Both the position numbers and the translations under genes were made by a program. Shown here piece after piece: positions 7,932-51,221 of a stretch of DNA of 64,000 nucleotides; positions within the stretch are counted from its first letter, which is position 1; every line of letters begins with the position of its first letter. Under the pieces are notes generated by a model. That model was not told where the DNA came from, ran no database searches, and saw only the letters and a list, made by a program, of their open reading frames with translations. The DNA is taken from NCBI GenBank assembly GCA_044229845.1, contig JBGASG010000014.1, positions 9,047 through 73,046 of the forward strand, read 5' to 3'. The DNA comes from Candidatus Obscuribacteraceae bacterium. Its GTDB lineage: Bacteria > Cyanobacteriota > Vampirovibrionia > Obscuribacterales > Obscuribacteraceae.

Positions 7932-9644
7932 TTACCGCTGTGATTGTCGATTGTGGTAGACGCAAAGCATTCCCCTCGGACTGTTTACCGCTTTCAGCGC
8001 CTTCCATCGCGAGTCTTGGCGTACCTGCTCTGAGACATAGATAGCAGTGCATTCGCTGTACGAATTATCGAATTTCCCTCTGGCCTCTTCTGGGCGGGCG
8101 AACACAGCAATCAGATCTACCGTTCGGCAAACTTCTTCGTATGCGGCCTTTGCCACATCGCTGGCAGACTTGTTGGGATAAAGACCCTTCATGTGATACT
8201 CGTGTATGCTGAAGCAAGCAGACTCAGGGCAGTAGATGCCATATTTGTAGAATGCCTCGAGTTGCGGGTAAATTGTTTGCGTGTCAAACTCAAGAAACGA
8301 TTTCGAGCCCGTCGAGGCGATCAATGAGGCCAACTCGACGTCAGTACTCTTCTGGAGTTGATGCTGACCGCCAGGATTATTGGTGATCCTGCGAAAGCGG
8401 TCGTATGAAAGAGCGGCGGAAGTAATGTTTAAGGCTAAGAGCGACAGACAAGTGCCTGCCACGAGCCAGCGACGAGAACCGTCTATCGGTCCAGGTACAA
8501 AAGCCATTATGGTCACAGCCGGCAGAAAATACGCAAGGGCGTGCTCGCCACCGGCAATGCGGCACACTAGACACGTCACGAGCACTAACGATAACGTAAA
8601 CCACAGACAGACGAACGCGGGTCTCCAATTTTCTCTGCGTCGATCCCAATTCGCCAGATTGATCACCGAAAGAGTCAGTAAGACGGCCAGGACAGGCAGT
8701 CCAAACATTGCGAGAAGAGACACAGCAGTCCACTGCACGGATTCGATAACCGTATGGTTAAGTGCGCAGCCTGCTACTTTGTAATAAGCCCACGAAGTCG
8801 GAAATGAGCTTATTGCAAATGCCATGCCGGGCAGCGCTCCCAGTAATGTGCATCCACAGGACAACACTCGCGCTTTCAGAGAAAGCTCTTTACGAGATAG
8901 CACCACGGGCAGTGCCAGGCACGAGAATGCCGCAACGTGAATAGTCGACCACCATCGGCAGAGAACGGTGGCCGACAAAAAGCAGCCGAAAGCGAACACC
9001 CAGCGCTTTTGACCGGTCTCATGAAAAAACAAGAGCGAAACCGCGGCACAGCCAAGCGCGAAAGCGGCGGTCAGGTCAAGCCAGAACGCGGCAATTCCGT
9101 GCATGGGATCGTAGAGAAAGGGCATTGCAATGAAGGTAGTCATGGCAGTCAGCGCGAACAGCACCGAAGCGGTGCGGCGAGCGACCAGTGCCCCGAACAA
9201 CACAAGGAGAGAAAACAAGAAAGGAATTTCTGTCCACAAATGTCCCGACTCTTCAATTAGCAATCGAGGAGCAAGCATAAGGTAGGGCAAGGTGCGCAGA
9301 GGGCAGCGATCATTAGATAAAAAATCGCTGCAGATAGTAGCCCAAGCGCCCTGCTGCAAGTACGCATGGTAGAGGGCAATATGCCACTTCAGATAAGCGG
9401 CGGCATCATAAAAATAGCCGTAATTCCGGACAAACAAGTTTTCCAGTCTGCAACATGACCAGACCAGCCACGCCGTAATAACAACGGCACACAGAAAAAT
9501 GCTGCTTCCGCGAACAATTCCCAGCGGCGGACAATCGGAAACAAAATTGGCAGACCCACTCAGGCCCGAGCCGCAGTGCTCGTCAGCTGTCCATTGTCCA
9601 TGTCTACGCAGCATCCCTCGCCTGCATTTTGAAGCGCTAAGCAT
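7932..9644 (-). CDS. Polytopic membrane protein, putative GT-C-fold glycosyltransferase (paralogue 1 of 5)
   Basis: Many hydrophobic segments then a soluble C-terminal domain; NYGYFYDAAAY, PLRTLPYL, FLYDPMHGIAAFWLD. Confidence 0.7.
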   Translation of the reverse strand: MLSASKCRRGMLRRHGQWTADEHCGSGLSGSANFVSDCPPLGIVRGSSIFLCAVVITAWLVWSCCRLENLFVRNYGYFYDAAAYLKWHIALYHAYLQQGAWATICSDFLSNDRCPLRTLPYLMLAPRLLIEESGHLWTEIPFLFSLLVLFGALVARRTASVLFALTAMTTFIAMPFLYDPMHGIAAFWLDLTAAFALGCAAVSLLFFHETGQKRWVFAFGCFLSATVLCRWWSTIHVAAFSCLALPVVLSRKELSLKARVLSCGCTLLGALPGMAFAISSFPTSWAYYKVAGCALNHTVIESVQWTAVSLLAMFGLPVLAVLLTLSVINLANWDRRRENWRPAFVCLWFTLSLVLVTCLVCRIAGGEHALAYFLPAVTIMAFVPGPIDGSRRWLVAGTCLSLLALNITSAALSYDRFRRITNNPGGQHQLQKSTDVELASLIASTGSKSFLEFDTQTIYPQLEAFYKYGIYCPESACFSIHEYHMKGLYPNKSASDVAKAAYEEVCRTVDLIAVFARPEEARGKFDNSYSECTAIYVSEQVRQDSRWKALKAVNSPRGMLCVYHNRQSQR

Positions 9645-9674
9645 ATCCGCTAGAATAGCTAGATCTGACTGCTC

Positions 9675-9745
9675 GGGTCTTTAGGCGGTTGTAATGAGAG
9701 CGCGGCGCTTTGTCAGCCACCCTCATTACAACAGGCTAAGGACTC
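9675..9745. repeat. Imperfect 24-bp inverted repeat between divergent paralogous genes
   Basis: Perfect core GTTGTAATGAG (9688-9698) / CTCATTACAAC (9722-9732); arms 9675-9698 and 9722-9745 pair at 20/24 positions (hand count). Confidence 0.85.
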
Positions 9746-9773
9746 TCTAATGCGTTAAAGCTATTGTTTCTGC

Positions 9774-11486
9774 ATGAATCAGGTTAGCGTTCTGACCGCT
9801 CAGAAGAGCCAAACACCCGACTCAGCTCGCGAGCGAGCGAGCCAGTCCAAGCAGGCGCCAAAATCGTCTAGGTGGGTTAAAGCCGAGCATTTTCTCTGCG
9901 TCTTGTTCGCCACCTCGATGACCGCTTGGTTGACCTACGCGTCGGTGCACATAGAGTCATTACATCTTGCCAACCATGGGTTCTTCTACGACCCGGCGAC
10001 TTATCATTTTCAACATATCGACCTGTACCGTGCGTGCATTCGCGACGGAGCTTGGCCGACTCTTCTACATGAACTATCTACTAACTCGCGCTGCTTGCTG
10101 CGCACAGTACCCTACCTGTTGTTAGCGCCCTCTGCATTGAAGTCAGTTTTTGCCCATTTGTACACGGAGGTGCCTTTCCTCTGGTCGTTTCTCCTTTTGC
10201 TCACGTTCACCTCCTATTGGCGAACGAAATCTGCTCTGTTGGGCATTTTGCCGGCTACATGTTTTTCGTGCTTGCCCTGTCTCTACAATCCACAGTCCGG
10301 GCTGGGGGCTTTCTGGCTGGATTTGACGGCGTCACTGTCCATGGGTAGCGCAGTCTTGTGCTTGATTCGGTTTGCTGAAACCAAACACGCACGTTGGATG
10401 CTGCTCTTTGGAATATTCGCCTCAGCCACAGCGCTTAGCAGGTGGTCGGCCGCCTCATACTTGCTGCTATACGCACTCGCCGCCGTACCGATAGCCCTAA
10501 TTCAACCGCAATTCCGCATTGGTAGTGTGATTAAGCCGCTCGCGCTGGCACTGCTGACTGCTCTACCTGGACTAGTTTTTACGTTCTACTGGTTCAAGGA
10601 GTGCACGAGTTACTATGCCCATTCCGGATATGCACTAAATTCACCAATCAGCGACTCGTTTGCTTGGGCGTTCCGGACTCTCCAGCTGCAATTGAGCCCA
10701 ATCGCCTCTCTTATCCTGGTTGTCCTAACGATGCTCCATTTAGGGCTGGCGTTCAGAAACCGCACAAATCGCCGAGTTACGCTCATTTCTGTCTGGTTTC
10801 CAGCCGCTGTACTACTCTTTGTTTGTGTCGTTTGCAGAGCGGTCGATGCTTTTCATGCCCTGTTCTACATGGCACCAGCTTTAGTCGTTTCAGCATTTGC
10901 ACCCATATCAAAGGAGCTGGCTGAACGCCATACCAAAGCACTGAAAATCTTTGCAGTCGCATTGATCGTCGGCTCAGTCGTCCTTATTAGTAATGCCTAT
11001 GATGAACAGCGGCGTTTCGCATCTTCGGTAGACCCAGCCAGAACGATCCGCAAGAAGGCCGATGTCGCAATGGCAAAGTTCATTGCCCAAACCCAGGCTC
11101 CCACTTTCATTGAGTTCGACACACAAACGATAATGCCGCATCTAGAGGCGTTTTATGCGCACGGCGTTTACTGTCTGCATCCGCACTGGTTTAGTGTTCA
11201 CCCATTCCACTTTACCGGTCTATATCCGAACAAGACGATCGACCAGATGGCGGCTCGCAACTACTCAGATGTGGACAGAGACGTGGCTCTGGTGGCAGTG
11301 TTTCATAACCCGAACGATGCCTTAGCTCCGGGCTTGTTCAACAATCCGTATAGCTCGCAGGTATCAGCGTATATTTCGGCTCGTGTGCCCAAAGAACACC
11401 AATGGCAGTTTTTAGGTTCGGTTGCTACACCCAATGGGTTGCTCGATGTTTACCACAATAGAGACTTTCGTGGGATAGGATTATGA
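9774..11486 (+). CDS. Polytopic membrane protein, putative GT-C-fold glycosyltransferase (paralogue 2)
   Basis: NHGFFYDPATY, LLRTVPYLL, LYNPQSGLGAFWLD, FIEFDTQT, GLLDVYHNR. Confidence 0.7.
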   Translation: MNQVSVLTAQKSQTPDSARERASQSKQAPKSSRWVKAEHFLCVLFATSMTAWLTYASVHIESLHLANHGFFYDPATYHFQHIDLYRACIRDGAWPTLLHELSTNSRCLLRTVPYLLLAPSALKSVFAHLYTEVPFLWSFLLLLTFTSYWRTKSALLGILPATCFSCLPCLYNPQSGLGAFWLDLTASLSMGSAVLCLIRFAETKHARWMLLFGIFASATALSRWSAASYLLLYALAAVPIALIQPQFRIGSVIKPLALALLTALPGLVFTFYWFKECTSYYAHSGYALNSPISDSFAWAFRTLQLQLSPIASLILVVLTMLHLGLAFRNRTNRRVTLISVWFPAAVLLFVCVVCRAVDAFHALFYMAPALVVSAFAPISKELAERHTKALKIFAVALIVGSVVLISNAYDEQRRFASSVDPARTIRKKADVAMAKFIAQTQAPTFIEFDTQTIMPHLEAFYAHGVYCLHPHWFSVHPFHFTGLYPNKTIDQMAARNYSDVDRDVALVAVFHNPNDALAPGLFNNPYSSQVSAYISARVPKEHQWQFLGSVATPNGLLDVYHNRDFRGIGL

Positions 11487-13171
11487 CCAGCACCACGATC
11501 TCACCGCAATCATCTCTGTCAGCGGAAAGCGAGCCCCGAGCAGCCGATCTTGTGACAAAGTCGCCTCTTGCCGGAACGGTTATGCTGGTGACTCTATCTG
11601 CAATGGCAACTATTTGGCTAACGTTCGCGGGAATCAAAATCGAAGGCGCATATCTGCACAACTATGGATTCTTTTTCGATCCGGCGGCATACTACCTGCA
11701 CAACATCGAAGTGTATCGGCATTATGAGTCCCAGGGGATTCTGTCCACCCTAGCCCATCAGATCGCGCACAACCCTCGAGACCCAGCGCGAATCGTCCCT
11801 CATTTGTTATTTGCACCGCAGTCGTTGATTAGCCTGTGGGGGCACATGTGGACACAGATGCCACTGGTCTTCGCCTTTCTCAGTTTGCTTTCAACAACAA
11901 CTTGGGCCCGTACGCGATCGCTACTTCTGAGTTGTGCGGCGATCGCAAGCTTTGCGTCTATGCCATTTTTGTACGATCCGATGCATGGAGTAGCGGCCTA
12001 CTGGCTGGACTTTACGCCAGCGTGCGCACTGGGTTGCCTTGCCCTTTGTCTTGTCAGATTCTTGATGCGGCCTCATCTCGGGTGGATGTTCTTCTTCGGG
12101 ATTTTTGCATCGCTAGCCGCGTTGAACAGATGGTCATCATCCTTCTACGTCATAGCCTTCGCCGCGTTGGCATTTCCACTTGCCTTAACCGCACAGAACC
12201 GCTCGCAATCAATCGTCAAATGCGTCCTCGTAGCATTCTTAGGAGCAGCACCAGGATTGCTGTTTCTGTTCGGCTTTTGGCAGGAAAACAGCTGGTACTA
12301 CAAAACGTTCGGTTTCGCGTTCGGGGCTCCAATTTCCCAATCGGTGTTATGGACAAGCAAAGCGATCGTCAAAATGATTGGAGCGCCTTTGTTATGCACA
12401 ATTCTAGCGATGTCACTTCTACATCTTAAGCGGCTTAAACAAGAGGCACGCGTAATCGCATTATGCTGGTGGCTTCCTATCTCGATACTGCTGTTTGTTT
12501 GCTGTGTTGTAAAAGCCGTAGACGGATATCATCCGCTCGTTTATTTTGGCCCAGCCCTTGCCGTTTCAGCATTCGGTGCACTTAGAACCCCATCAGAACT
12601 TACTGGGAAATGGCTAGGAGCAACCGTCGCCATCCTGGTGTTGTGCCTTGCTGTCGGAGTGCATTCGTATGAGGTTGCGCGAAAAATAGCCCATAACCCC
12701 TCGCCAGAAGAAACCTTGAAAAAGAAAGCTGACGCGGCTCTGGCCGGGCTCATTATCGAAACAAACTCTCGTTGCTTTACGGAGTTTGATACAGAATCAG
12801 TACGCCCGCAGATGGAAGTGTTCTTCTTTCATAAGCGTTTTTGCAACTGGGTCTCTTATTTCAGCATTCATGAGTCCTATCTAAAATTCATCTATGACAA
12901 TGCGACGCCGCCACAAATGGCAGACCGCGCCTTCAAGCAACTTAAGAACAAAGTGGAACTGGTGGCAGTCTTTGCCAATGCGAGCGATGCTCTCAAGCCG
13001 GGCGTTTTCAATAACCAGTATAGTGCGGCTGTATCAAAAGGAGTGGCGGAACAAGTGGCAACAGACCCGGATTTCCACCTCACGGGGCACGTGCAGGCTC
13101 CCGCCGGATTGCTGGCAGTTTACAAAAACAACGCCTACAAGACTCTAGGCACCACATTGAACCCTAAATAG
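11483..13171 (+). CDS. Polytopic membrane protein, putative GT-C-fold glycosyltransferase (paralogue 3)
   Basis: ATGA overlap with upstream gene; NYGFFFDPAAY, FLYDPMHGVAAYWLD, FTEFDTES, GLLAVYKN. Confidence 0.7.
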   Translation: MTSTTISPQSSLSAESEPRAADLVTKSPLAGTVMLVTLSAMATIWLTFAGIKIEGAYLHNYGFFFDPAAYYLHNIEVYRHYESQGILSTLAHQIAHNPRDPARIVPHLLFAPQSLISLWGHMWTQMPLVFAFLSLLSTTTWARTRSLLLSCAAIASFASMPFLYDPMHGVAAYWLDFTPACALGCLALCLVRFLMRPHLGWMFFFGIFASLAALNRWSSSFYVIAFAALAFPLALTAQNRSQSIVKCVLVAFLGAAPGLLFLFGFWQENSWYYKTFGFAFGAPISQSVLWTSKAIVKMIGAPLLCTILAMSLLHLKRLKQEARVIALCWWLPISILLFVCCVVKAVDGYHPLVYFGPALAVSAFGALRTPSELTGKWLGATVAILVLCLAVGVHSYEVARKIAHNPSPEETLKKKADAALAGLIIETNSRCFTEFDTESVRPQMEVFFFHKRFCNWVSYFSIHESYLKFIYDNATPPQMADRAFKQLKNKVELVAVFANASDALKPGVFNNQYSAAVSKGVAEQVATDPDFHLTGHVQAPAGLLAVYKNNAYKTLGTTLNPK

Positions 13172-13278: not shown

Positions 13279-14592
13279 TTGGTTGGGAAATCAGTATGTG
13301 AGGTACGTGTGCAGCGCCCCGGCATCACTTATTGGCCGCAGCTGGATGGACTCAGAGCGTTGGCATTTCTGCTGGTCATGTTTCATCATCACTGGGCTCC
13401 TGCAAAGCTTTTTCCCTGGGACTTCATGCAAAAGTCGCTGGTTAAACTGGCTGAGTGGGGATGGCTGGGCGTTGATTTGTTCTTCGTGCTCAGTGCCTTC
13501 CTAGTCACACACTTACTGTGCGCGGAACTATCCCATAAGAGAGATATCTCGCTATCAAAGTTTTACTTACGCCGAGCTCTGCGTATCTGGCCGCTGCTTT
13601 TCCTTGTCTTGACGATCGTTTGTTTTGTCTGCCCACTGTTCGCGCCGCACAAAGCATCACATTTGTACGGCCTATTTCTCACCAACATCGCACTGCCTTT
13701 GTACACTTTCTCCGGTAACTTTGCCCTGTCGGTGCACTTTGGAGACATGCAGAACTATGCCACGGCGTCCGGATTGGATTTCATGTTGTTCGTTACGCTG
13801 TTGTGTCCCTTTTGGTCGCTTTGTATAGAGGAACAGTTCTATCTTTTTTGGGGACTGGTGGTGAAAGCAGTAGGCAACATCCGAACACTTGCTTTTGTGA
13901 CCGCGGCACTCATTGTAGTTGGTTTTTTTGGTCGCCTTTACTTGCTTATCAACCGCGGGGAAGCAGCCTTTACCTGGTACTACATGCATTCTCTTTGGCA
14001 CCTGGATACCATCATGTTTGGTGCCATGCTGGCAGTAGTTTTAAATCGGCGTCCACAGATTTTCAACTGTCTGCGCGCTGGTTGGCTGCCAGCGTTCTTG
14101 ACGGTCTTCGCTATTTCGACTTTTCTAGGTATCGTAAATTTCGCACCGGGCATTGACACTGGCAGTTACTGGTTGGCACCGGTGATGACGACCGTTTCTC
14201 TGACCGGGGCGCTAATGGTGGCATTGGTATTGCACTGGTCACCCCTCTCAAAGCTCATGTCTTCGAAATGGCTCACCGAAATAGGAAAGTTGACCTTCGG
14301 TATGTACGTCTTCCACTATGCGATTATTTGGTACGCGCGTACCTATTTGAACCTGACAGTGACTGGTCTTAACGGAATTTGGAGCCTGATCGTATCGTTT
14401 GCACTCATCTACGGCGCAGCACGTCTTTCTTGGGAAGTTGTTGAAAAGCCCATGCAAAACCTACGCCGCCGATTCGCTTCTGTAGAATACTCAGCGGAAC
14501 AAGCTCAGAACGACCCAAGCGCATCAATTGTGCCAGCCGCACCAAGCAACCAGCTCGAACAATTGGCTCTGAGTACTGGAACAACAAAGTGA
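13279..14592 (+). CDS. Acyltransferase family 3 (OafA-like) membrane O-acyltransferase
   Basis: LDGLRALAFLLVMFHH, GVDLFFVLS, FYLRRALRIWP, WSLCIEEQFY; no fused SGNH domain; start uncertain. Confidence 0.92.
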   Translation: MVGKSVCEVRVQRPGITYWPQLDGLRALAFLLVMFHHHWAPAKLFPWDFMQKSLVKLAEWGWLGVDLFFVLSAFLVTHLLCAELSHKRDISLSKFYLRRALRIWPLLFLVLTIVCFVCPLFAPHKASHLYGLFLTNIALPLYTFSGNFALSVHFGDMQNYATASGLDFMLFVTLLCPFWSLCIEEQFYLFWGLVVKAVGNIRTLAFVTAALIVVGFFGRLYLLINRGEAAFTWYYMHSLWHLDTIMFGAMLAVVLNRRPQIFNCLRAGWLPAFLTVFAISTFLGIVNFAPGIDTGSYWLAPVMTTVSLTGALMVALVLHWSPLSKLMSSKWLTEIGKLTFGMYVFHYAIIWYARTYLNLTVTGLNGIWSLIVSFALIYGAARLSWEVVEKPMQNLRRRFASVEYSAEQAQNDPSASIVPAAPSNQLEQLALSTGTTK

Positions 14593-15319: not shown

Positions 15320-17032
15320 TCAGATCTGCGCCTTGGTTTTAGGGTGCTGAAGTTCTGTGTTTTGGTAAACAGACAAAAGACCGGTAGGACTCGTTACGCA
15401 ACCGACAAATTTAAAACTCGGATCGGCAGCAACCTTCGCGGATACAGCCTGGGCAATGGCTGCACTCAAACGGCTGGGGAATGCACCGGGTTTAGTGGCA
15501 TCCTCTGGCTTAGCGAAAACAGCGACCAACTGAACATGCTTTTTGGTTTTCTTGTAAATGCTCTCGATCATGGCTGCGCGGTCCTGTCCCGGATACATTC
15601 CCTCGAGGTAAGCATCGTATCGGCTAAAGATAGGGAACGCAGAACAGGACCGCCCGGTCTTAAAAAATGACTCCAGGTGCGGGTTGACAGTTTCGTCATT
15701 GAACTGCAAAAACGACTTGGCGCCAGAGCTTACGATCAGGTTTGCCAGACTTTCGTCGCACCGCTTGGCAAGGCGCGCTGCAGGTGGAGCCGCATTTGCA
15801 AATTTGCGGCTGACATCATATGCAGCGGCAATCAAGAATGTTGAGCAGATAAGCAAGAGTGCACTCAGAGCATTAACCACTTTCTGATTCCAATGCCGAA
15901 AATCAATTGGAATCATCGCAGCTACAATTAGTGCCGGACCAAAGTAGACCAGCGGGTGCGTTCCGCTTACCGCTCTTACCACGAGGCAAACAAACAATGC
16001 CAAAGACATCGGTAGCCACAAAGCTATGGACTGCAACTTCAGCTGTTCTTTGTTTTTTGTTTGAACAACATTGACCACCATCAGTGTCAGTAGCAGCGTC
16101 AAAACAGGAACTCCCATAATCCGGACAATCGCTTGCATGGTCCACTCGATAGACTGGCTAAGGGGTGCGCCAAAAGCAAAGCCGTAGGTTTGGTAGTACG
16201 TTCGGTTCAATTCATAGAAAGCGAGAACAAAGACAAGCCCCGGCAATGCCCCGGCAAACATGACAAAGAGCGCTTTCAGCAGTTTCTTACCATCCAGCCC
16301 AAATACGCTCAACAGCGTTAACGGCAAAGCAGCGGCGAGAAAAGAGAGTAGATAGAACGCCGATGAAAATCTCGCGAGAGCAGTTGCCGAGAAAAAAGCC
16401 CCGGTTCCTAGCAGCCAAATCCAATGTCGTTGCTGGCTGTAAGTTATTAAACAGAGTGCAGCGGAACCTAAGCAACATGCAGCAGTGAAGTCCAGCCAGT
16501 ATGCCCCTAACCCCACTCCCGGATCGTATAGAAACGGTAATGCCGCAAACACTGTCATTGTGGAGAGCGAGAACAGCAAATTGCGCGTGCGCAAATAGGC
16601 GACTGAGGACAACAGCGCTAAGAACGCCCATAAGAATGGCGTCTGCGTCCACAGGTGTCCGTCCATACGGACCAGCAGGTCTGGTGCTACTAGCAAATAG
16701 GGCACTGTACGCAGTGGATGCCTGGCATTAAATTGCACTTCCTGCTGGATGGCAGCCCATGCACCGTTCGCTTTCGCATAATCGTGCAGATGGATGTTGT
16801 GGACATAGTATGCGGATGGATCGCAGAAAAATCCGTAGTTGCGCAGATACGTTGACTCAATACGCCACGGCGCGACTGTCAACCAAGTACTGATGATGGT
16901 GGCAACCACCAGAAGCAGGCTAATCACCAGCTTAGACACTGGCGCCGCTGATTCCGCATTTGTACACGATATTTGAGCCTGAGCTTTTGGCATGGCAGGC
17001 GCGAACAAGTGACTCATAGAACCTGTATCCAC
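15320..17032 (-). CDS. Polytopic membrane protein, putative GT-C-fold glycosyltransferase (paralogue 4)
   Basis: NYGFFCDPSAY, PLRTVPYLL, FLYDPGVGLGAYWLD, GLLSVYQN. Confidence 0.7.
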   Translation of the reverse strand: MDTGSMSHLFAPAMPKAQAQISCTNAESAAPVSKLVISLLLVVATIISTWLTVAPWRIESTYLRNYGFFCDPSAYYVHNIHLHDYAKANGAWAAIQQEVQFNARHPLRTVPYLLVAPDLLVRMDGHLWTQTPFLWAFLALLSSVAYLRTRNLLFSLSTMTVFAALPFLYDPGVGLGAYWLDFTAACCLGSAALCLITYSQQRHWIWLLGTGAFFSATALARFSSAFYLLSFLAAALPLTLLSVFGLDGKKLLKALFVMFAGALPGLVFVLAFYELNRTYYQTYGFAFGAPLSQSIEWTMQAIVRIMGVPVLTLLLTLMVVNVVQTKNKEQLKLQSIALWLPMSLALFVCLVVRAVSGTHPLVYFGPALIVAAMIPIDFRHWNQKVVNALSALLLICSTFLIAAAYDVSRKFANAAPPAARLAKRCDESLANLIVSSGAKSFLQFNDETVNPHLESFFKTGRSCSAFPIFSRYDAYLEGMYPGQDRAAMIESIYKKTKKHVQLVAVFAKPEDATKPGAFPSRLSAAIAQAVSAKVAADPSFKFVGCVTSPTGLLSVYQNTELQHPKTKAQI

Positions 17033-17298: not shown

Positions 17299-18606
17299 AT
17301 GACCACAACGACGAAAACTAAGCCGCCGCTGAGAGCTGACACTGCAATTGGTGCGAGCCCAGAAGCACTCAGAAACACAACTCTAGTACAAGAGCCCGTG
17401 TTGGGTTTCGCTTGGCTTGGACGATTGTTTGCACCCAAGGCTTTTCTAGTTAGTGCAGTACTCGGGTTTGTGATTTGTTGCGGACTCGGCTACTTAACTA
17501 CTTTGAAAAATCAATATGGCGACATCCCTAGATTCGGCGTCTACGTCGGTCCACAGGCATCGCTTTTCCCAACCGCCAGCCAGCTTCTCGCGTACACCAA
17601 GGCGCATGCACGAGATGACCAAATTCTCGTCGTGGTGGGCGGTAGCTCTGTTATGAATGGCGTTGGACAGTCGAACGAGCAACTTTGGACGAAGAAACTT
17701 CAGCAACGCCTCGGCGACAAGTTTGCGGTTGTGAACTTAGCCATGAGGTCCTGCAGCACGTACGAAGTTGCTTGTTTTATCGCAGAAGCCATGCTCAAAG
17801 AGCACCGGAAAGTCATCTTTGTGACCGGTACTCAGGCAGCCTATGGCTGGAACGTCATTGGACGCCCGCCTTACGCGCACTATTATTGGGACGCCAAATT
17901 TCATGACTTATTGCTCGACTTTCCTGAACGCGACCAAGCGCTGAGAGATTCTGAGAAGGACCTGTCCAGCTTCGGCTGGACACCGGAAAGCCTCACCGAA
18001 CTCAAATTAGGCGAATGGCTAAATTCCAAGCTATATCAGTACGAACTCTGGAACACAGTAGGCTACAGATATTTCTTCACCAGCTACTCGGCAGTGGCAG
18101 CGGGTGCGACAGAACTCAAAGGCGTTTATTGGCCGCGAAAAAAGCTGCCCAAAAACATGGAAGCAGAGGAGACGTTCCCACTTCCGAGCGAAGAATTTGC
18201 AAAAAATTTCTTCCCAACTGTACTCTCGAAGTTTGTTGTCTGGAATGAAAAATCCAAGCAGTGGGAGAAGAAGGTCGACACTTGGAACGCAGCTGAAGAA
18301 ACGCTCCGCACCAATCTGGTGCGGCGGCTGCGCCCACACACGCTTTTGGTATTGAGCTATTACAGCCCATATTTCCGTCACAAGTACCTCACCAGACCAC
18401 AACAACTCAGTGAACAAAAGGCCTACAGTTTGACCCAAGATCTTTTCAAAAAAGAAGGTGTTCGCTCTATTCGTTCTGGAGACGCCTACGATGCAGCAGA
18501 TTTCCGAGATCCAATTCACCTGAGCCCAAGTGGCGGTCAGAAACTCGCGATTGATGTATCAAAAGAGGTCACGGAAATGGCAAAAGAGTTGGGGTATCTT
18601 AAATGA
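17299..18606 (+). CDS. Membrane-anchored SGNH-like protein (DltD-like acyltransferase)
   Basis: N-terminal TM segment, block I VVGGSSV, VVNLAM, C-terminal DFRDPIHL (DxxH). Confidence 0.7.
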   Translation: MTTTTKTKPPLRADTAIGASPEALRNTTLVQEPVLGFAWLGRLFAPKAFLVSAVLGFVICCGLGYLTTLKNQYGDIPRFGVYVGPQASLFPTASQLLAYTKAHARDDQILVVVGGSSVMNGVGQSNEQLWTKKLQQRLGDKFAVVNLAMRSCSTYEVACFIAEAMLKEHRKVIFVTGTQAAYGWNVIGRPPYAHYYWDAKFHDLLLDFPERDQALRDSEKDLSSFGWTPESLTELKLGEWLNSKLYQYELWNTVGYRYFFTSYSAVAAGATELKGVYWPRKKLPKNMEAEETFPLPSEEFAKNFFPTVLSKFVVWNEKSKQWEKKVDTWNAAEETLRTNLVRRLRPHTLLVLSYYSPYFRHKYLTRPQQLSEQKAYSLTQDLFKKEGVRSIRSGDAYDAADFRDPIHLSPSGGQKLAIDVSKEVTEMAKELGYLK

Positions 18607-18806
18607 GCCAAATTCAGGCAGCCGATACGAATTCAACCAGTCGGATGAACCGCGTAAGACCTGTTTTCTTCGCCCTCCCATCCAGCCATCGTTTTACCGG
18701 AATCGCCCTGTCCATAGCCTTAGGACTGGCGGTAGGAATACTCTCGCATTACATTTTATACAGACTCTCCCTACCAGCAAAGCCTTTCATATACGCCGCT
18801 TTCTAA
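18603..18806 (+). CDS. Single-TM microprotein with C-terminal FIYAAF (DltX-like acyl-shuttle candidate)
   Basis: ATGA overlap with the SGNH gene; TM FTGIALSIALGLAVGILSHYILY; ends PFIYAAF-stop. Confidence 0.75.
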   Translation: MSQIQAADTNSTSRMNRVRPVFFALPSSHRFTGIALSIALGLAVGILSHYILYRLSLPAKPFIYAAF

Positions 18807-20525: not shown

Positions 20526-22484
20526 ATGGCTGTCCTATCAGATCGCAAAGATGCTCCGAAATCCCAGCCGGCTGCTTCGCCCACGCTGGGCGCAAAGGGT
20601 ACCAGTTTTCCTTCACTTGCCGGCTTAAGTTCAGCCTTCCGCAGCAAAACTCTCGCACGGCTGCTGACCAGCGACTGGTTTGCGCTGTTGATGCTGCTGG
20701 CGCTGCAACTCAGGCTGATGTGGGGCATTTGGGATTTCAAAGACATCTCGCTGGGAGATTCGCCATCGTATTTCCAGCTGGCTTCTGAGGGGCTCGAAAG
20801 CCATCGGGTTCACTTTGCCTGGTCACCACTTTACACCATAACTGGTGCGGTACTGCTTCACTTCCAGAACCATCCGCTGATGTTTACGACAGGTATGCGG
20901 TTGATACTGGTGGCACTCATCACCACCATGGTTTTCTCAATCATGCGCCGGTTGCTCCCACTGCCGGCGGCATGGTTGGCCTCCGCATGGTTCGCCAGCC
21001 TGCCCATATACTTCGACACTCTTTACGAAGTCCATCTGTTTGGCTGTTTGCCGACCCTGAGCGCCTGGCTCATTCTGCTCACCTTTCCGGGACGGTGGGG
21101 ACGCGGAATCGCTTTGGCAACTTTTGCCCTCGGGGCATGTCTCATACGCAATGAGCTGTCGATTCCATGTGCTATCTTCGGGACGTGTGTACTTGTGTAC
21201 GAACTCCTCCAGTACAGAGAGCTGAGACGCACAGACAAGCTATCGAACCGCTCCATCACCGGTTCGCGGCTACCAGGACTCTTGATACCGTATTTGGTAC
21301 CGCTTTTGGTCAGCGCGACGATTGTGGGAATCGTCTATGAGCGCTCGACCGCACACTTCCCACTGCTGTCAAAGCATTTCAAAATCAAGCACACTCTTAA
21401 CGTCTGCCAAATTTATGCTGCCAACTACCAGCAGCGTCATCCTGAGTGGACAAATGATCCCTGGACCGGCTATTCCGAACTCATGAAATCGACATTCGGG
21501 AAAGTACACGTGACCATGGGCGAGGCGATAGCGCGCAACCCGCGGGCAATGCTCGACTATTTTGCCTGGAACTCACACCTGATACCATCCGGACTGCAGG
21601 TTCTTCTGTTCAACGCTGCTTCCGGGAAGGACAACCCAGACTATGCTCAGGTCATCGTCGACGCTCCAAAAGCCATCACATTATCTTGTCTGGTCCTGGC
21701 AGCGTTGCTTTCAGGGGCGATCAAAATCTCGCAAGAATTGCCCGACGTAAAACAATGGCTCATAGATAGGCAGCGTTATTTTTGCGTGCTGGCCATGACT
21801 GCGAGCGCTTGTTGCTCGTTGTTTGTAATGCTGATGCAGCGTCCACGCCCGTCCTATATTCTTACTTTGGGAGTTTCAATCATTGCTCTGACAGCTTTCT
21901 GTTGCTGGCGCCTAGTTCGTAATCTCAAGTTACAACTGCCGGCCGCAATGCTTCCGACGGTGATGATTTGGATGGTAGTGTTCGCCCCGCCTTACTATGC
22001 GATGCTTAGCGCCAATCGCCGTGTCATGTTCGACTATTACACGTTTCTCGTCCCTTTCAAGCCATTATTCAAGCAGACTCAGGGCGCTATCGTGTTGCCT
22101 GACCACGGCATCGATATGGCTCTCTACGTGATAGGCGGCAAAGCCTGTGATCAATTCAAATATTGGCGCTCATTTTCTTCGCTGGGCGGTACGCCGAAAA
22201 GCGCCACCCAAATTTGCAACACTCTGGATAAAGAGTTCGCAAATTACGTGCTCTTCGCAGAAGACAACATCGATCAGCCGTCTGTCTCGGATTTCATGCG
22301 TAGAGCAAACTCCAAAGGCTGGAGAAATATCGGATTGCAGCGCACGCCGGGAAAGAGGTTTGCTCTCTTCCAGCGGATTGAGCCCGTCAACTTGTTTGTT
22401 TCTGCACCGGCAAAAAACACTCCCGTGAAAGCCGGTTCTGGCGCACCCAGAGATCCTGCGTCCAACCGGGCCGGGCAGCTATGA
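20526..22484 (+). CDS. Polytopic membrane protein, putative GT-C-like glycosyltransferase (distinct family)
   Basis: Multiple TM segments; GDSPSY in first loop, WSPLY, IRNE; large loop; follows the GT2-MTase gene. Confidence 0.6.
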   Translation: MAVLSDRKDAPKSQPAASPTLGAKGTSFPSLAGLSSAFRSKTLARLLTSDWFALLMLLALQLRLMWGIWDFKDISLGDSPSYFQLASEGLESHRVHFAWSPLYTITGAVLLHFQNHPLMFTTGMRLILVALITTMVFSIMRRLLPLPAAWLASAWFASLPIYFDTLYEVHLFGCLPTLSAWLILLTFPGRWGRGIALATFALGACLIRNELSIPCAIFGTCVLVYELLQYRELRRTDKLSNRSITGSRLPGLLIPYLVPLLVSATIVGIVYERSTAHFPLLSKHFKIKHTLNVCQIYAANYQQRHPEWTNDPWTGYSELMKSTFGKVHVTMGEAIARNPRAMLDYFAWNSHLIPSGLQVLLFNAASGKDNPDYAQVIVDAPKAITLSCLVLAALLSGAIKISQELPDVKQWLIDRQRYFCVLAMTASACCSLFVMLMQRPRPSYILTLGVSIIALTAFCCWRLVRNLKLQLPAAMLPTVMIWMVVFAPPYYAMLSANRRVMFDYYTFLVPFKPLFKQTQGAIVLPDHGIDMALYVIGGKACDQFKYWRSFSSLGGTPKSATQICNTLDKEFANYVLFAEDNIDQPSVSDFMRRANSKGWRNIGLQRTPGKRFALFQRIEPVNLFVSAPAKNTPVKAGSGAPRDPASNRAGQL

Positions 22485-24208
22485 AGACAGCGCCAGAACC
22501 GACCGCCGCAAACTGCCAGACTGCAACTTTTCCTTCAGCGACCACGTCCGGTATTCAGCAAGAGAATTGGAAGTGGCAAAACTTCGCCAGTCCGGCGCTA
22601 TTTGTTTGCCTGGGAGTGGCGCTGATCTGTATTGTGGGGCAAATCGGCTACCACGTCCAAACTCTGCACTTCGCCCACTATTCGTACATATATGATCCAG
22701 TTTCCTACATGTATATGAACGCAAAAACGTATTTGCGGCTTCAAGATCAGGGACTGATTAACACCATCGGTTACGAGTTGCAGAAAAGTTGCTACCCGTG
22801 GCGCACTATTCCATTGTTGCTCGTGGCACCAGGTCTTCTGGCAAAGCCACTTGGGCACATGGCCACAAGCCTGCCCCTAATGGGCTTCTTTGCCGCTCTG
22901 CTTGGCTGGACATCATATCGATTCGGCGGCAGCCGCTGGTACGCAGCCGCCGCAATGTTTGTCTTACTTGCTATTCCGGGTTTGTTCGATACCAAATTCG
23001 GGGTCGGACAAAATTGGCTGGACTTCGCGTCAGCCTGGACGGTGGGAGTGTGTTACCTGTGCGCACTCAATCATGAGCGAACCCTGAAAACGAGATGGCT
23101 TGTCTTGGCGGCAATAGCACTTACTCTGGGAGCGTGGTGCCGCTATGTCAGTTGCGTCTATGCTGTTTTAATTTGCGGACCGATGCTGGGATACAACTGG
23201 GTAACAGCGTGGCGCAGCCGAAGGCTAACTGCAAGCGCCACCGGCAAGCAAGTATTGACTCTTGTGCTGTCCACGGTCTTGCTCGCAGGTCCATTTGCAG
23301 TCAGCAGATTTGCCGGCATGTATGTCCGATACACAGAGGTAGGCTACGGACTCAACCAGACCGTTGAAGCAGCCTACATCGGGTTGAGCAGTGTCTTGCT
23401 GACAGCGCTTCTCACTGTGCCCTTTATCGCGTTCGTTGCCACCATCGCGCTGGCGATTCTTCTACTTACTCAGTTTCGCGTTACGGCTAGTTTGCTTGTA
23501 AATCGTGTGTGGCCAGTGGTGTCCGTGCCGCTTTTGCTTGTACTGGTGCTGCGAGCTCCCCAGAACGGCTATGTATTGTGGCATGAAATTCCTGTCCTAA
23601 TCGCGGCAGTAGTTGTTCCTTTGGGAGCGGTCAAGCACAGCCCCATCGTGCCTCGCATTCTGGCAACAGCAGTACTGGTGGGGACATCAGTGCTCTCCTG
23701 GAACAACATTCACCATCACTTGGAGACAGCCGCACATCCATCACTGGACGTTGCTGAGCTGAAACTTTTAGATCGGCAATTGGCTGATGAGATAGTCAAG
23801 CTTCCTGCCAATTCAACCTGGTCTCCATTTTTTGCCGAGTACCACGTAATACCAAATATGGTGGCATTCTATTCCGACCATAGACTGGCAAGCATTCCAG
23901 AGCCGGGACTCTTTACCGAGCACAAAGCATTCTGGGTGCAAGATTATAAAACAGACAATCCAGCCGTCATCAGCGCGCGTGTTCTGCAAGGTCTCGAGGC
24001 AAACTGCGCAATGGCTGTCGTCTACGATTCGCCGGAATTTATCGACCGCGCCCAGCAATTAGCTATCTTAGACAACGCGATCAGCATCGAAGTTTCGCGC
24101 CAAGTACTCAAGCACCTCGCTGGCAATCACAATTGGCAAAAAACATCTACGATTAATACCAAACGATTCGGGACGTTGGCAATTTACACGCGGAAAGACG
24201 GCCGGTAA
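22481..24208 (+). CDS. Polytopic membrane protein, putative GT-C-fold glycosyltransferase (paralogue 5, most diverged)
   Basis: HYSYIYDPVSY, PWRTIPLLLVAP, GHM, GLFDTKFGVGQNWLD, FGTLAIY. Confidence 0.65.
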   Translation: MKTAPEPTAANCQTATFPSATTSGIQQENWKWQNFASPALFVCLGVALICIVGQIGYHVQTLHFAHYSYIYDPVSYMYMNAKTYLRLQDQGLINTIGYELQKSCYPWRTIPLLLVAPGLLAKPLGHMATSLPLMGFFAALLGWTSYRFGGSRWYAAAAMFVLLAIPGLFDTKFGVGQNWLDFASAWTVGVCYLCALNHERTLKTRWLVLAAIALTLGAWCRYVSCVYAVLICGPMLGYNWVTAWRSRRLTASATGKQVLTLVLSTVLLAGPFAVSRFAGMYVRYTEVGYGLNQTVEAAYIGLSSVLLTALLTVPFIAFVATIALAILLLTQFRVTASLLVNRVWPVVSVPLLLVLVLRAPQNGYVLWHEIPVLIAAVVVPLGAVKHSPIVPRILATAVLVGTSVLSWNNIHHHLETAAHPSLDVAELKLLDRQLADEIVKLPANSTWSPFFAEYHVIPNMVAFYSDHRLASIPEPGLFTEHKAFWVQDYKTDNPAVISARVLQGLEANCAMAVVYDSPEFIDRAQQLAILDNAISIEVSRQVLKHLAGNHNWQKTSTINTKRFGTLAIYTRKDGR

Positions 24209-28703: not shown

Positions 28704-29306
28704 TCAAGATACGGCAGCGCACGGATTCCCCAGTGCTGTGACCCCAGCGCCGACATCCTTGATCACCACGCTGCCAGCTCCTACTACTGCCCACTGTCCC
28801 ACTTTCGAGCCAGGTCTGCCGACCGAGCCAATGCCTACCAACGCTCCTTCTCCCACCTGGCACTGTCCACCTAACACCACGTGTGGTGCCAGGTGAACGT
28901 GATCACCGATCGCGCAATCGTGCTCCACTATCGCGCCAGTGTTAATGATTGCGTTTCTGCCGATGGTCGACTCAGCATTGATTATCACTCCGGCGCCAAT
29001 GTAAGACCCTGGCGCAACGTTTGCAGTCTTGGAAATCAATGCCTGTGGATGAATCGCCGAGCGAGCGATCCATCCATAGCCCAGTGCCGCTTCGAACAAC
29101 TTTTTGCGGAGCTGGTTATTTCCGATTGCGACTATAAATTCATGCTGCCCGGATAAAGAGGACTGGCAGGCGTGAACCGGCCGGTTGTAAAACTCTTTCC
29201 GCTCGGTCAGGGGATCGATGAACCCGTCAATGGCTACACTGGCGCTCGCAAAATTCTCTGCGACGACCTTCGCATGCCCACCGGTGCCAAAAACATATAG
29301 CCCCAA
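28704..29306 (-). CDS. NeuD/PglD-like sugar acetyltransferase (LegH-like role)
   Basis: GTGGHAKV, AIGNNQLR, IINTGAIVEHDC, GNPC. Confidence 0.88.
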   Translation of the reverse strand: MGLYVFGTGGHAKVVAENFASASVAIDGFIDPLTERKEFYNRPVHACQSSLSGQHEFIVAIGNNQLRKKLFEAALGYGWIARSAIHPQALISKTANVAPGSYIGAGVIINAESTIGRNAIINTGAIVEHDCAIGDHVHLAPHVVLGGQCQVGEGALVGIGSVGRPGSKVGQWAVVGAGSVVIKDVGAGVTALGNPCAAVS

Positions 29307-29321
29307 AGCGCAATCCTCAGC

Positions 29322-29987
29322 TTACATGTTCAAGAAATTTGTGAGCAACTTGAGTCCCACTTCGCCGCTTTTTTCGGGATGAAACTGACAACCGAAAACC
29401 ATGTCCTGATTTACTATCGCGGTGATACGTCGGCCGTTATAGTAGGAATCTGCCACGCGTACGCAGTTGTCGTCAGGCACTACGGAGTAAGAATGCACGA
29501 AATACACATGTGGAGACTCGCCCAAATTATGTAGCAGCGCCTCGCCCTTGTGGTTATCGGCACTGGGACGAGCGGCACACTCGGATGAGCGGTGCAAAGC
29601 ATTCCAGCCGACATGGGGAATCTTATGCCTGCTGCCATCGGTGCCCGTGTCCGGTATGGCAACGACTTTGCCTCGAATCAGATTGAGTCCTTCGTGGTCT
29701 CCAAATTCTTCTGCTGTCGATAGCAGAAGCTGCATGCCCAGACAAATGCCGAGGATCGGCCGGCCGCTTTTTGCATATTCTCGTAGAGGTTCCACCAAAC
29801 CGTTTTCGCGAAGTCCCTGCATGCCGTCGGCGAAGGCTCCTACGCCCGGAATAACTACTCGCTCTGCAGAGGCTATGTCGCTGGCAGCACTGGAAAGATG
29901 CACATCAGCCCCGCAAACCGTCAAAGCTCGCGTAACGCTCATAATGTTACCAAGCCCATAATCAACAACAAGAGCGCGTTTGCTCAT
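29322..29987 (-). CDS. HisH-like glutamine amidotransferase of the glycan cluster
   Basis: DYGLGN, PGVGAF, GICLGMQ, PHVGWN, YFVHSY, QFHPEKS. Confidence 0.9.
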   Translation of the reverse strand: MSKRALVVDYGLGNIMSVTRALTVCGADVHLSSAASDIASAERVVIPGVGAFADGMQGLRENGLVEPLREYAKSGRPILGICLGMQLLLSTAEEFGDHEGLNLIRGKVVAIPDTGTDGSRHKIPHVGWNALHRSSECAARPSADNHKGEALLHNLGESPHVYFVHSYSVVPDDNCVRVADSYYNGRRITAIVNQDMVFGCQFHPEKSGEVGLKLLTNFLNM

Positions 29988-30835
29988 GGCGTGCGCACCC
30001 TCAATCCGGCGCCGCGGGCAGTTTCTCGCAGCTCGGACAAGTTGCAGCGTCCGTAGTGCAAGGCGTCCGCAATGGCGACGGCATCGGCACAGCCTTCTTG
30101 AAACACTGCAACCAGATCGCCCGCTTTCCCCAAGCCGCCGCTGGCAATAACGGGCACCGGTACCGATGTGGCTACCGCCCGAGTCAGTTCGACATCAAAC
30201 CCTTTGCGTGTACCCTCTTGGTCTACAGAGGTCAGCAAAATCTCTCCGGCGCCCCGCTGCACCCCTTCTATAGCCCATTCGACAACACTGCGCCCTGTGC
30301 GATCTCTTCCATTGTTAACCAGCGCTTCCCAACCATCTCGTCTCCGTTTGGCTTCGATAGAAAGAACCACGCATTGGGAACCGTACGAGCGCGCAACTTC
30401 TTCTATCAATGCCGGATTTTCCGTGGCGGCAGTATTGATAGCCACTTTGTCGGCTCCTGCTCGTAAGAGAACACGAACATCATCGACCGAACGTATGCCA
30501 CCACCGACGGTTATGGGCACAAAGATGCTCTCAGCCGTGCGGCGAACTATTTCAACAAGATTGTTGCGTCCATAGAGACTAGCCACCGTATCGATATAGA
30601 CAATTTCGTCGATCCCCTGCTGGTAGTATTGCTGAGCGAATTCTTGCGGATCGCCGACGACACGCAGACCTTCCAGGTGCATCCCCTTGATTAAGTTCGC
30701 GCCTTTAACGTCGAGACGGGCAATGATCCGTAAAAGTGAACGGTTGGGCGACGACAATTTCGTTACTGGATCGCAACTAGTCGGATCGGTTTCCTCATTC
30801 AATCTGGGTTGCTGTTGATGCTCAAGAGACATCAT
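29984..30835 (-). CDS. HisF-like cyclase-fold protein of the glycan cluster
   Basis: RIIARLDVKG, EGLRVVGDP, VASLYGRN, TVGGGIR, GADKV, GAGEILLTSVDQEGT, IASGG. Confidence 0.9.
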   Translation of the reverse strand: MMSLEHQQQPRLNEETDPTSCDPVTKLSSPNRSLLRIIARLDVKGANLIKGMHLEGLRVVGDPQEFAQQYYQQGIDEIVYIDTVASLYGRNNLVEIVRRTAESIFVPITVGGGIRSVDDVRVLLRAGADKVAINTAATENPALIEEVARSYGSQCVVLSIEAKRRRDGWEALVNNGRDRTGRSVVEWAIEGVQRGAGEILLTSVDQEGTRKGFDVELTRAVATSVPVPVIASGGLGKAGDLVAVFQEGCADAVAIADALHYGRCNLSELRETARGAGLRVRTP

Positions 30836-31914
30836 TACACCGGTGAGAAGCTAGTTGCGCTTGGACCATCAGCCATGGTTTCTTGGAAAGATTGCCGAAC
30901 ACTCAAATAATCCTCCACCCTCCCAATATCGGCCCACTCTTCACGTACTGGAAATGCCGCAGTTGGCTGTCCATCGTCTATGAGCTGAGTAAAGAGGGTC
31001 GTCATATCGAGATTAGCACCCTGTTTGACGTATCTGAGTACCGACGGCTCGAGCGCGTATATACCGGCATTGACAAAGAAGTCCTGCATTGGCTTTTCGT
31101 CGATCTGTCGAATGCGCGTTCCGTCCATGCGCACCACCCCATAAGGGACCTGGAAATTGTACTTGAACACACACATCGTGGCTTCAACTTGCTGCTCTTT
31201 ATGAAACTGCAGTAGCTGCCTAAAGTTGACGCCGGTTACCAGGTCGGCATTCATAACGAGCAGGGTTTCTGTTGGCAAATCGGGTAACAGTCCTAGTGCG
31301 CCGGCGGTTCCCAGCTGGACGGGCTCGTCCAGATACTCGATTTGCACCCCCCATTTCTCTCCCGTGCCGAAATACTCTTTCACCATCTCAGCTTTGTAAT
31401 GCACGGTGACGAAAAATCTGTGAAACCCATGCTCGGCAAAGTTATCGATGATGCGCTCCAGGATTGGTTTGTTGCCCACCTCAAGCAGTGGCTTGGGCAC
31501 ATTTTCTGTGAGCGGCCTGAGTCGCGTTCCCAACCCGCCAGCCATGAGCATCACCCAATGCTCGCTGTTCTTGCTTTGCTTCAGTTCGTGCAGAAAACGC
31601 ACAGCCACCACACGATTAGAGGAGTCGACCACGGGAATCTGTCTGACAGACATGTTTTTCATTCTGCTCAAAATCGACAGATGAGGTTCGTTTTCCAGAG
31701 CGACAATCGGGTGATGATTCATCACTTCCTGAACATTGGCATCCGGTGTTATTCCGGACAACAGCGCTCGTCTGATATCGCCATCGGTAACGGTTCCGAG
31801 AAGTGTATTGTTGGGCCCGACGACCAGTGCAATCTGTTCTGCCCCGCGGTCAATGATTTCCAGGGCCGTGAGCACGCTTGCTTCCGGGCTAACACTAAAT
31901 GTTTTCCAGCGCAC
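30835..31914 (-). CDS. CBS-domain nucleotidyltransferase (PtmE/LegX-like)
   Basis: N-terminal CBS pair (GTVTDGDIRR); MAGGLGTRLRPLT...PKPLL, LGTAGAL, VMNAD, NAGIY, WADIG. Confidence 0.9.
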   Translation of the reverse strand: MRWKTFSVSPEASVLTALEIIDRGAEQIALVVGPNNTLLGTVTDGDIRRALLSGITPDANVQEVMNHHPIVALENEPHLSILSRMKNMSVRQIPVVDSSNRVVAVRFLHELKQSKNSEHWVMLMAGGLGTRLRPLTENVPKPLLEVGNKPILERIIDNFAEHGFHRFFVTVHYKAEMVKEYFGTGEKWGVQIEYLDEPVQLGTAGALGLLPDLPTETLLVMNADLVTGVNFRQLLQFHKEQQVEATMCVFKYNFQVPYGVVRMDGTRIRQIDEKPMQDFFVNAGIYALEPSVLRYVKQGANLDMTTLFTQLIDDGQPTAAFPVREEWADIGRVEDYLSVRQSFQETMADGPSATSFSPV

Positions 31915-31921
31915 CGGCAGA

Positions 31922-35372: not shown

Positions 35373-35394
35373 CGAGGCTCTCCCAACTCATAAG

Positions 35395-36411: not shown

Positions 36412-36630
36412 TGTTCGCCCTGCGCTGTTGTGCCACTGCAAGCGGTGCTTGGACACGTTTAGAGTGTACAAGAGTTTCTGCCGTTCGTTTCTCGACTCTA
36501 TGATTTTGAACTCATCATCGAACTTAACAAAACCTACTCCAGACTGCGTTGGTGCTTGTAAGGATATAAGCAAAAGCAACGATAGAGCGTGCTAGAGTTC
36601 AGTATTCGAGCCGTAGTAAGGAGGCAAAAA

Positions 36631-37842: not shown

Positions 37843-37890
37843 ATGGCGATTTTGCTTTGCACCAGCAGTACTTAAAGCGAGGAGTCCGAG

Positions 37891-38091
37891 ATGTCGAATG
37901 TTTTGAAGGGCAATTTTCAACCAGAGAACGATGTCGTCTTGGACGAGAAAGACGAAACATTGCGCCAGAAAGAGGAGTTTGAACGCGCTGCGTTACGCCG
38001 CTTAGGAGGCAGCATTGCCTTTGCATCGCCGAAGAAAGGATTCATCTGGACTGGAGACGAAAAACATAACGAAAATGCCGACAAAAAGTAG
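37891..38091 (+). CDS. Small hypothetical protein (66 aa)
   Basis: GAGGAG before ATG; overlaps the start of the next ORF. Confidence 0.5.
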   Translation: MSNVLKGNFQPENDVVLDEKDETLRQKEEFERAALRRLGGSIAFASPKKGFIWTGDEKHNENADKK

Positions 38092-38467: not shown

Positions 38468-38469
38468 GG

Positions 38470-50926: not shown

Positions 50927-51153
50927 AGATCAAGTTTTGCAGCCGACTGCCTATCACTACCGATGTTAGAGCGAAACACGATGGCAACGCTCCTGGATGC
51001 ACAAGACCGGCAGGTGTTTGACCATTGAAAATTATGTGGAAAAACCACTTTCGTTCATCTAAAGCGGATCTTATTTGACCGACCACCGCTCCTCCTTCTT
51101 GAGTCACATGAAAGAAAAAGCTAACCCTGGGTAATGTCTCCTAATGACACCCT

Positions 51154-51162
51154 TGGTATCAT
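51154..51162 (+). promoter_or_regulatory. Putative extended -10 element (TGGTATCAT)
   Basis: About 60 nt upstream of ATG 51222. Confidence 0.35.
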
Positions 51163-51221
51163 GCTTCCTTCTGAAGCTCTCAGGCTTCTTCAAGCTTTCG
51201 AACCGATGCGGAGCAAACGAC

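Follow-up and report, generated by a model that had tools for sequence, protein, structure and literature searches.

The SGNH-fold protein and the 67-aa microprotein encoded side by side in the window (the whole stretch of 64,000 nucleotides analysed here) are read as forming the outer part of an acyl relay of three proteins whose MBOAT would be encoded in trans, on contig C3 of the same genome (labelled G000). In relatives, the genes for a tail-less MBOAT, an SGNH protein and a microprotein normally form one cassette, which is real and conserved, and the missing neighbour MBOAT is, on the sequence evidence, a rearrangement in this genome and not the architecture of the family. The full mechanism, in which an acyl-CoA-fed MBOAT, a free Tyr peptide and an SGNH enzyme acting on a surface glycan would be completed in trans, is considered probable; its chemistry, donor and acceptor we infer by analogy with DltX and PatA, as presented in the available part of PMC12148441.

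The SGNH gene (17299..18606, forward strand) encodes a membrane-anchored protein of 435 aa from the ATG at 17299, or of 437 aa from a GTG at 17293; the ATG is the likely start, since the closest homologue (P0001) begins likewise, and SGNH residue numbers are counted here from 17293. Its predicted nucleophile, a role assigned from the SGNH fold, is Ser119, the second Ser of the GGSS motif (codon at 17647..17649, forward strand), and the predicted triad also includes Asp406 and His409 of the DPIH (DxxH) block (18508..18519, forward strand). The microprotein ORF (18603..18806, forward strand), a predicted free acyl shuttle with a single helix, begins with an ATG that overlaps the SGNH TGA as ATGA and ends in the hexapeptide FIYAAF (18786..18803, forward strand), an FXYXXF acyl-shuttle motif as defined in the available part of PMC12148441, within which Tyr64 (codon at 18792-18794, forward strand) is the predicted acyl carrier. 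One hydrophobic helix was found per protein, spanning residues 34-52 in the microprotein and residues 50-68 in the SGNH protein. The sequence-only reading had described a 67-aa, single-helix ORF ending in FIYAAF-stop and overlapping by ATGA a membrane-anchored protein with GGSS and DPIH motifs, as well as an MBOAT ending in FIYFRF at 53565..54992 (forward strand), and all of this was confirmed in the sequence. The latter MBOAT groups in the tree with tailed MBOATs, outside the tail-less clade, and forms a separate conventional fused-shuttle system with its own partner, an AlgX-family gene located directly behind it (54997..56598). When the six MBOATs of the genome were compared with the window by tblastn, no MBOAT remnant was detected near the SGNH/microprotein pair, the only meaningful E value being obtained at 53565-54989, and a scan for promoters and terminators gave matches at chance level only.

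In the 5.16-Mb genome, F-x-Y-x-x-F ends are carried by ten of the 118,183 stop-to-stop frames of at least 25 aa, namely five MBOAT tails, the microprotein, its paralogue, and three unrelated frames. When the last 32 codons of microprotein homologues were compared with the window copy, the median pN was 0.28 and the median pS 0.84, with pN below pS in all 86 comparisons, and homologues are present in 84 of 97 related loci. Judged from these sequences, the microprotein is a real, conserved gene that is syntenic with the SGNH gene, two points that the earlier reading had set as checks. A profile of 67 members recovered it in 29 of the 107 genomes of the order (all 28 that have the SGNH gene, and one match at a contig edge); as a motif pattern was used to choose the members, F, Y, and F are necessarily invariant in them, which does not apply to their presence beside the SGNH gene. 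The family has the signature HYxLYR...P...PFIYxxF, and this gene of 38-90 codons is covered by no family model: the DltX family of Pfam (presumably PF12459) was listed for none of the 67 members at E values up to 1, and neither of the two microproteins tested matched NCBIfam. What it has in common with DltX is that it is a small single-helix membrane protein ending in FXYXXF. Only the positive-inside rule favours an N-in/C-out topology, which would place the C-terminus outside (net positive charge before the helix in 64 of 82 microproteins vs. 30 of 82 when the last 13 residues are scored).

No match to the window SGNH protein was found in Pfam or NCBIfam; the DltD model PF04914 matched neither this protein nor anything else in the genome, and a PDB sequence search returned TesA only (E 0.13). 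It belongs to an unnamed SGNH family with 497 representatives at E ≤ 0.001 and 385 at ≤ 1e-10, and its nearest named look-alike clusters are LB_356 (33%) and DUF1574 (17%), the latter an SGNH family whose activity is given as not known in the available part of PMC9487903. The AF2/AlphaFold model (pLDDT 88.5) had DltD on top when compared with solved structures using Foldseek (E 2e-5), and re-alignment of Foldseek's top 1000 chains with VIA-align gave Z 15.2 for DltD 3bma (rmsd 4.3 over 295 residues, 10% identity), the next non-DltD entry reaching Z 10.9. Ser119, Asp406, and His409 are shared by all 34 sequences of one alignment, and in a wider alignment of 170 proteins (the members of 340-460 aa among 178 collected) they are retained in 170, 165, and 167, respectively, an SGNH fold with a Ser plus DxxH triad. 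The window protein is thus predicted to be DltD-like over about 290 residues and to act as the final acyltransferase; the SGNH fold that had been supposed for the gene upstream of the microprotein was in this way borne out by the DltD match and the conserved triad. The idea that DltD-like means Dlt-derived was dropped, because weak DltD matches occur at other sites in 65 of the 107 genomes of the order.

The 97 related loci comprise 20 regions around 20 of 33 order-wide matches, 77 loci obtained by scanning GTDB with a pattern biased towards the GGNS subtype, and two metagenome loci, minus the duplicates L127 and L130. A tail-less MBOAT is present in 87 of them, the microprotein in 84, both in 78, and a tailed MBOAT in one; where at least 1.5 kb upstream and at least 0.4 kb downstream were available (n = 71), both MBOAT and microprotein were found in 66, and the order MBOAT-SGNH-microprotein is kept in 68 of the 97. 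Within the order, the SGNH gene occurs in 28 of 107 genomes, and those same 28 contain the microprotein and the tail-less MBOAT (one of them frameshifted); these co-occurrence counts are patterns and not statistics, because kin are not independent samples. Cassette hosts belong to Obscuribacterales, Verrucomicrobiota, and Planctomycetota, the record titles naming mostly Opitutaceae along with Chthoniobacter and Planctomycetota; among them is the genome of an isolate, Gemmata algarum JC673 (NZ_JAXBLV010000144.1, L140). No strong SGNH match outside G000 was found in 401 genomes drawn phylum-wide, and a metagenome scan with the single SGNH protein yielded no relatives among 201 pattern matches, while the scan repeated with an alignment yielded the two loci. 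Departures from the standard arrangement include lone SGNH genes (L097, L102, L113, L114) in assemblies that each have a cassette, complete or truncated at the end of a contig, at another locus, a solitary microprotein gene within a glycan locus (L178) of genome G479, which has its cassette elsewhere, and repeated modules behind one MBOAT (L131, L136, L140; L136 being MBOAT-SGNH-microprotein-SGNH-microprotein). Short genes of about 400 aa called AlgI in Verrucomicrobiota, Planctomycetota, and Obscuribacterales are not truncated; they need the separate small gene of 38-90 codons.

For the loader of the window peptide, the evidence supports the tail-less C3 MBOAT as the candidate. Six MBOATs are encoded in the genome, five with a FIYxxF tail; the sixth (G000:C3:2269-3468, 399 aa) is tail-less and directly followed by a second microprotein copy, so that a motif-less MBOAT elsewhere in the genome, which had been put forward as one of two possible loaders, was indeed found. 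It matches the MBOAT family (PF03062, 119 bits vs. 27), its catalytic His321 is invariant in 67 of 67 sequences and aligned with DltB His336, and it lies outside the fused-shuttle PatA/AlgI type, FIYxxF being absent from all 120 of its closest homologues. Genomes of the order mostly have several MBOATs each; in 27 of the 28 SGNH-bearing genomes a member of the tail-less clade is found at 549-658 bits, and the remaining one has a frameshifted member. No other MBOAT match across the order exceeds 385 bits, and the C3 gene is the only member of the clade in G000. Tailed MBOATs are found in 104 of the 107 genomes, and the SGNH/microprotein pair only where the tail-less clade occurs. The other tailed MBOATs of the genome (C3, C10, C15, C16) adjoin SGNH-like genes weakly related to the window SGNH. 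Co-folding of the C3 MBOAT with the window microprotein gave a score of 0.12 vs. a mark of 0.32 and is counted neither in favour of this pairing nor against it. Another loader could be missing from the assembly, because the genome is 88% complete.

In a congener (G472), the C3-type locus consists of a tailed MBOAT, a short MBOAT, an SGNH gene, and a microprotein. The C3 locus of G000 has the same arrangement with the SGNH gene excised between two short similar stretches, the ATG of the microprotein being lost as well, and the scar with the start-less microprotein copy lies at L008:2051-2268 (G000:C3). This deletion is not an assembly error, because contigs from two further studies (X5, X6) bridge the junction with at most one letter different (X1 may be the source sample). 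In a further run (X7), one contig has other sequence at the junction, with one side too short to count, and perhaps represents a strain that keeps the SGNH gene. The C3 microprotein copy also carries a Gly-to-Asp change in the helix, found in one of 87 copies, and as this rare change comes on top of the loss of the original ATG, the C3 locus may be decaying. Between the C3 MBOAT and that of the congener there are 79 synonymous and three non-synonymous codon differences, a constraint that is not proof of present activity because the span includes time before the SGNH deletion. In RNA runs, 5-9% of the C3 words were present. The only strong match to this SGNH family in the assembly is the window copy. 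One piece of the genome thus has the MBOAT and a microprotein with the SGNH gene deleted (C3), the other has the SGNH gene and a microprotein without an MBOAT (the window), and the two loci therefore sum to one full set.

In the proposed relay, the C3 MBOAT, which has the length of DltB, would pick up an acyl group at its cytoplasmic face, most probably that of an acyl-CoA, and load it through His321 onto Tyr64 at the outward-facing FIYAAF end, where an acyl ester is predicted by analogy; the group would then be passed from the microprotein to Ser119 of the DltD-fold SGNH protein, which would O-acylate a surface glycan assembled outside the inner membrane. A split, Dlt-style shuttle with a DltD-like SGNH partner in a non-teichoic-acid glycan locus had been anticipated by the sequence-only reading, and it gains support from the conservation of the cassette and the DltD fold match. 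The donor is most likely acyl-CoA, with acetyl as the default, and the AcpP of fatty-acid synthesis is a possible unlinked donor. The same three-part relay could also be fed by a carrier (AcpP or an unlinked ligase/carrier pair) and would then be a closer functional copy of Dlt, which we regard as unlikely. Consistent with it are the DltD-like SGNH protein, the joint clade of tail-less MBOATs and DltB, which was not rejected (p-AU 0.76), and the MBOAT model, which among solved structures best matches DltB (TM 0.73), a match that is uninformative on the donor because no solved tailed bacterial MBOAT was in the structure search. In one cassette (L077:4689-9530, an Opitutae bin, CAJAKX010000371.1), the MBOAT is immediately preceded by an ACP-like ORF and a gene for an enzyme resembling acetate-CoA ligase. 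It is the only such case: the other 96 of the 97 loci have no ligase or carrier in the 1.49 Mb of flanking DNA examined, with 5 kb on both sides available for 57 of the 97 loci (two plasmid controls were included in the carrier profile and are thus positive by construction). L077 is also alone among 67 MBOATs in having the loop replaced by a longer, GG-less segment, a single case that suggests a local switch, possibly of the donor. In DltB, DltC docks on Met302-Arg317 according to the available part of PMC11035591; in an alignment to 6bug/8jem, with the docking residues placed by counting from His289 and His336, the DltC-docking helix gives way in the C3 MBOAT to a four-residue gap and a shorter YIPLGG-type loop, which is common to tailed MBOATs and HHAT. 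On the DltB model TIGR04091, three of three tail-less MBOATs (180, 173, and 156 bits) fall below the cut-off of 375, and the 180 bits of the C3 MBOAT are similar to the scores of tailed paralogues (188, 174). The best match to DltA (TIGR01734) in the 88% complete G000 reached 132 bits vs. a cut-off of 560, and none of five other cassette-bearing genomes had DltA over the cut-off. The carrier search of G000 gave an AcpP, which lies in a fatty-acid gene cluster (the neighbours were identified by eye), together with a weak match and a domain of a 2944-aa frame.

Another reading is that the system is decaying, C3 having lost its SGNH gene and the window pair having come with a variable glycan locus, so that the two halves do not work together. 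The deletion is real, the C3 microprotein copy is damaged, the window SGNH has only about 50% identity to the SGNH type that accompanies the C3 MBOAT in other genomes of this kinship, and the GC content of the window is about 51% vs. 55-56% for most contigs; however, all three window and C3 genes are full length with intact catalytic residues, the conserved part of the window microprotein has 74% identity to the copy in the congener's cassette, and an SGNH protein with 60% identity (P0003) and a tail-less MBOAT with 85% identity (P0194) are each found on a 19,960-base JGI contig, to judge from the length probably the same one, which makes decay improbable. The other loader that had been suggested, as a speculation, the stand-alone AT3 acyltransferase at 13279..14592 (forward strand; PF01757, E 4e-27), would imply a hybrid AT3-shuttle-SGNH pathway. 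It lies 2.7 kb upstream of the pair on the same strand, and AT3 domains form acyl-Tyr intermediates in OatA (PMC12148441, available part); nevertheless, a hexapeptide-repeat gene and an opposite-strand gene stand between it and the pair, homologues of it or of a second genomic AT3 occur in the examined flanks of only five of the 97 loci, all five also with a tail-less MBOAT, compared with 87 of 97 loci for the tail-less MBOAT itself, and the genome has this dedicated MBOAT, which accompanies the pair in all 28 genomes. We therefore judge the AT3 to be outside the system and its role as loader very unlikely. Just as remote is direct acylation of the free peptide or the SGNH protein by a tailed MBOAT such as 53565..54992: this is the nearest MBOAT, in the same glycan region, and a free acetyl-FIYANF peptide is a PatB donor in vitro (PMC12148441, available part), but it ends in a tail and has an AlgX-type partner of its own, and tailed MBOATs, near-universal in the order, are accompanied by the pair only alongside the tail-less clade.

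The cassette is alike to Dlt (DltB-DltX-DltD) in its short tail-less MBOAT, its free single-helix FxYxxF microprotein, and its membrane-anchored, DltD-fold SGNH protein with a Ser/Asp/His triad. It differs in that no DltA was found over the cut-off (six genomes tested) and a linked carrier at one of 97 loci only, the cassette proteins have no match to the DltX, DltD, and DltB family models, the YIPLGG-type loop takes the place of the DltC-docking helix of DltB, and the microprotein has its own signature as given above. The cassette most likely works like DltB-X-D, by analogy, yet fails the tests for Dlt membership. Its hosts are diderm lineages that are not known to make teichoic acids. DltX is treated as a Gram-positive feature in the available part of PMC13653941. 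On an Enterobacter plasmid (NZ_CP071862.1), an IS-flanked dlt-like operon was observed with the order dltD, a 40-aa ORF, an MBOAT, an AMP-binding protein, and an ACP, in which the 40-aa "hypothetical protein" between dltD and the MBOAT ends in FEYQKF (L163:3572-3694) and is very likely the DltX equivalent. This Gram-negative operon has in common with the cassette a free microprotein, a short MBOAT, a DltD-type enzyme, and a diderm host; unlike the cassette, it has a ligase, a carrier, and a DltB-type docking segment, its MBOAT groups with DltB and not with the tail-less clade, and the two microproteins do not align.

With PatA/PatB, AlgI/AlgJ/AlgX, WssH/WssI, and PatA1/PatB1 the cassette shares an AlgI-type core with the YIPLGG loop, the hexapeptide, and a presumed acyl-CoA donor and glycan acceptor, and JGI names many of the tail-less MBOAT homologues AlgI. 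It differs from these fused-shuttle pairs in that its MBOAT (397-410 aa) is without the last helices and the motif, the motif being on a separate gene, and in that its SGNH protein is DltD-like (with DUF1574/LB_356 look-alikes) and not of the AlgX, PatB, or DHHW type. The available part of PMC12148441 (2025) describes MBOAT/SGNH pathways other than Dlt as having the motif fused, with no DltX-like microprotein and no carrier protein. A mirror combination, a fused shuttle with a carrier, was seen on Sinorhizobium pSymB (L162:3731-8765), where a tailed MBOAT is followed by an ACP and a HAD-family gene. In a tree of 31 rows, whose backbone is unresolved, DltB falls outside the single clade (99/100) that unites the tail-less MBOATs; a joint clade with DltB was not rejected (p-AU 0.76, the constrained tree being 14 log units higher), after which an independent origin from Dlt was dropped. 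The tail-less MBOAT may have arisen by fission from a tailed MBOAT or by shared descent with dltXBD; the profile comparison between the microprotein and the tailed MBOAT end aligned the last 12 residues only (probability 17), which does not establish fission. No description of the three-gene cassette was found in the literature searched, although loci of this kind may be listed in the primary source on DltX, Schultz et al. 2023, or its supplements. As far as the available parts of the cited papers go, teichoic-acid D-alanylation is the only pathway for which a separate acyl-shuttle carrier has been described to date, and, if the relay is correct, a free shuttle without a linked carrier would uncouple two traits that are paired in PMC12148441. 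The surprise is limited, because the chemistry would be the known acyl-Tyr relay, and the cassette offers a testable case of the shuttle as a swappable part and of what sets the donor, CoA or carrier. More tentatively, with somewhat less than an even chance of being right, it may represent a third MBOAT architecture, CoA-fed like PatA/AlgI and with a free Tyr shuttle like Dlt, in which one loader serves shuttle and SGNH genes scattered over different glycan loci in trans, with this genome as a natural complementation experiment, and a swap of a single cytoplasmic loop (seen once, in L077) turns the MBOAT to a carrier donor.

The acceptor we infer to be an extracytoplasmic glycan, probably one made by the glycosyltransferase locus around the pair. 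As a surface-glycan locus, the window has GT2- and GT4-type transferases, nonulosonic-acid synthesis, and an ABC-2 exporter, and epimerases, heptose-type enzymes, and ABC-2 exporters also lie near Verrucomicrobiota cassettes. No single glycan gene recurs next to the cassettes: the genes adjoining the pair in the window have matches at 0-2 of the 97 loci, so that the prediction goes no further than an extracytoplasmic glycan. Five membrane proteins that are paralogues of one another (562-575 aa, 22-41% identity) are encoded at 7932..13171, 15320..17032, and 22481..24208; none has a Pfam match over the cut-off, and the look-alike clusters of one include PMT_2/PMT (GT-C). The nonulosonic cluster (28704..39183), which we take to be of legionaminic type, encodes a dehydratase, an aminotransferase, a 2-epimerase, NeuB, nucleotidyltransferases, a HisH/HisF-like pair, and an acetyltransferase, and a transposase (DUF772 and DDE) is located inside the glycan locus at 39335..40717. 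A protein of the GSCFA family, an SGNH family without known function according to the available part of PMC9487903, is encoded at 48125..49354. Finally, an 806-aa membrane protein (51144..53564) precedes the tailed MBOAT of the window, and a homologue with 46% identity immediately follows the microprotein in the second cassette of the congener (L048).
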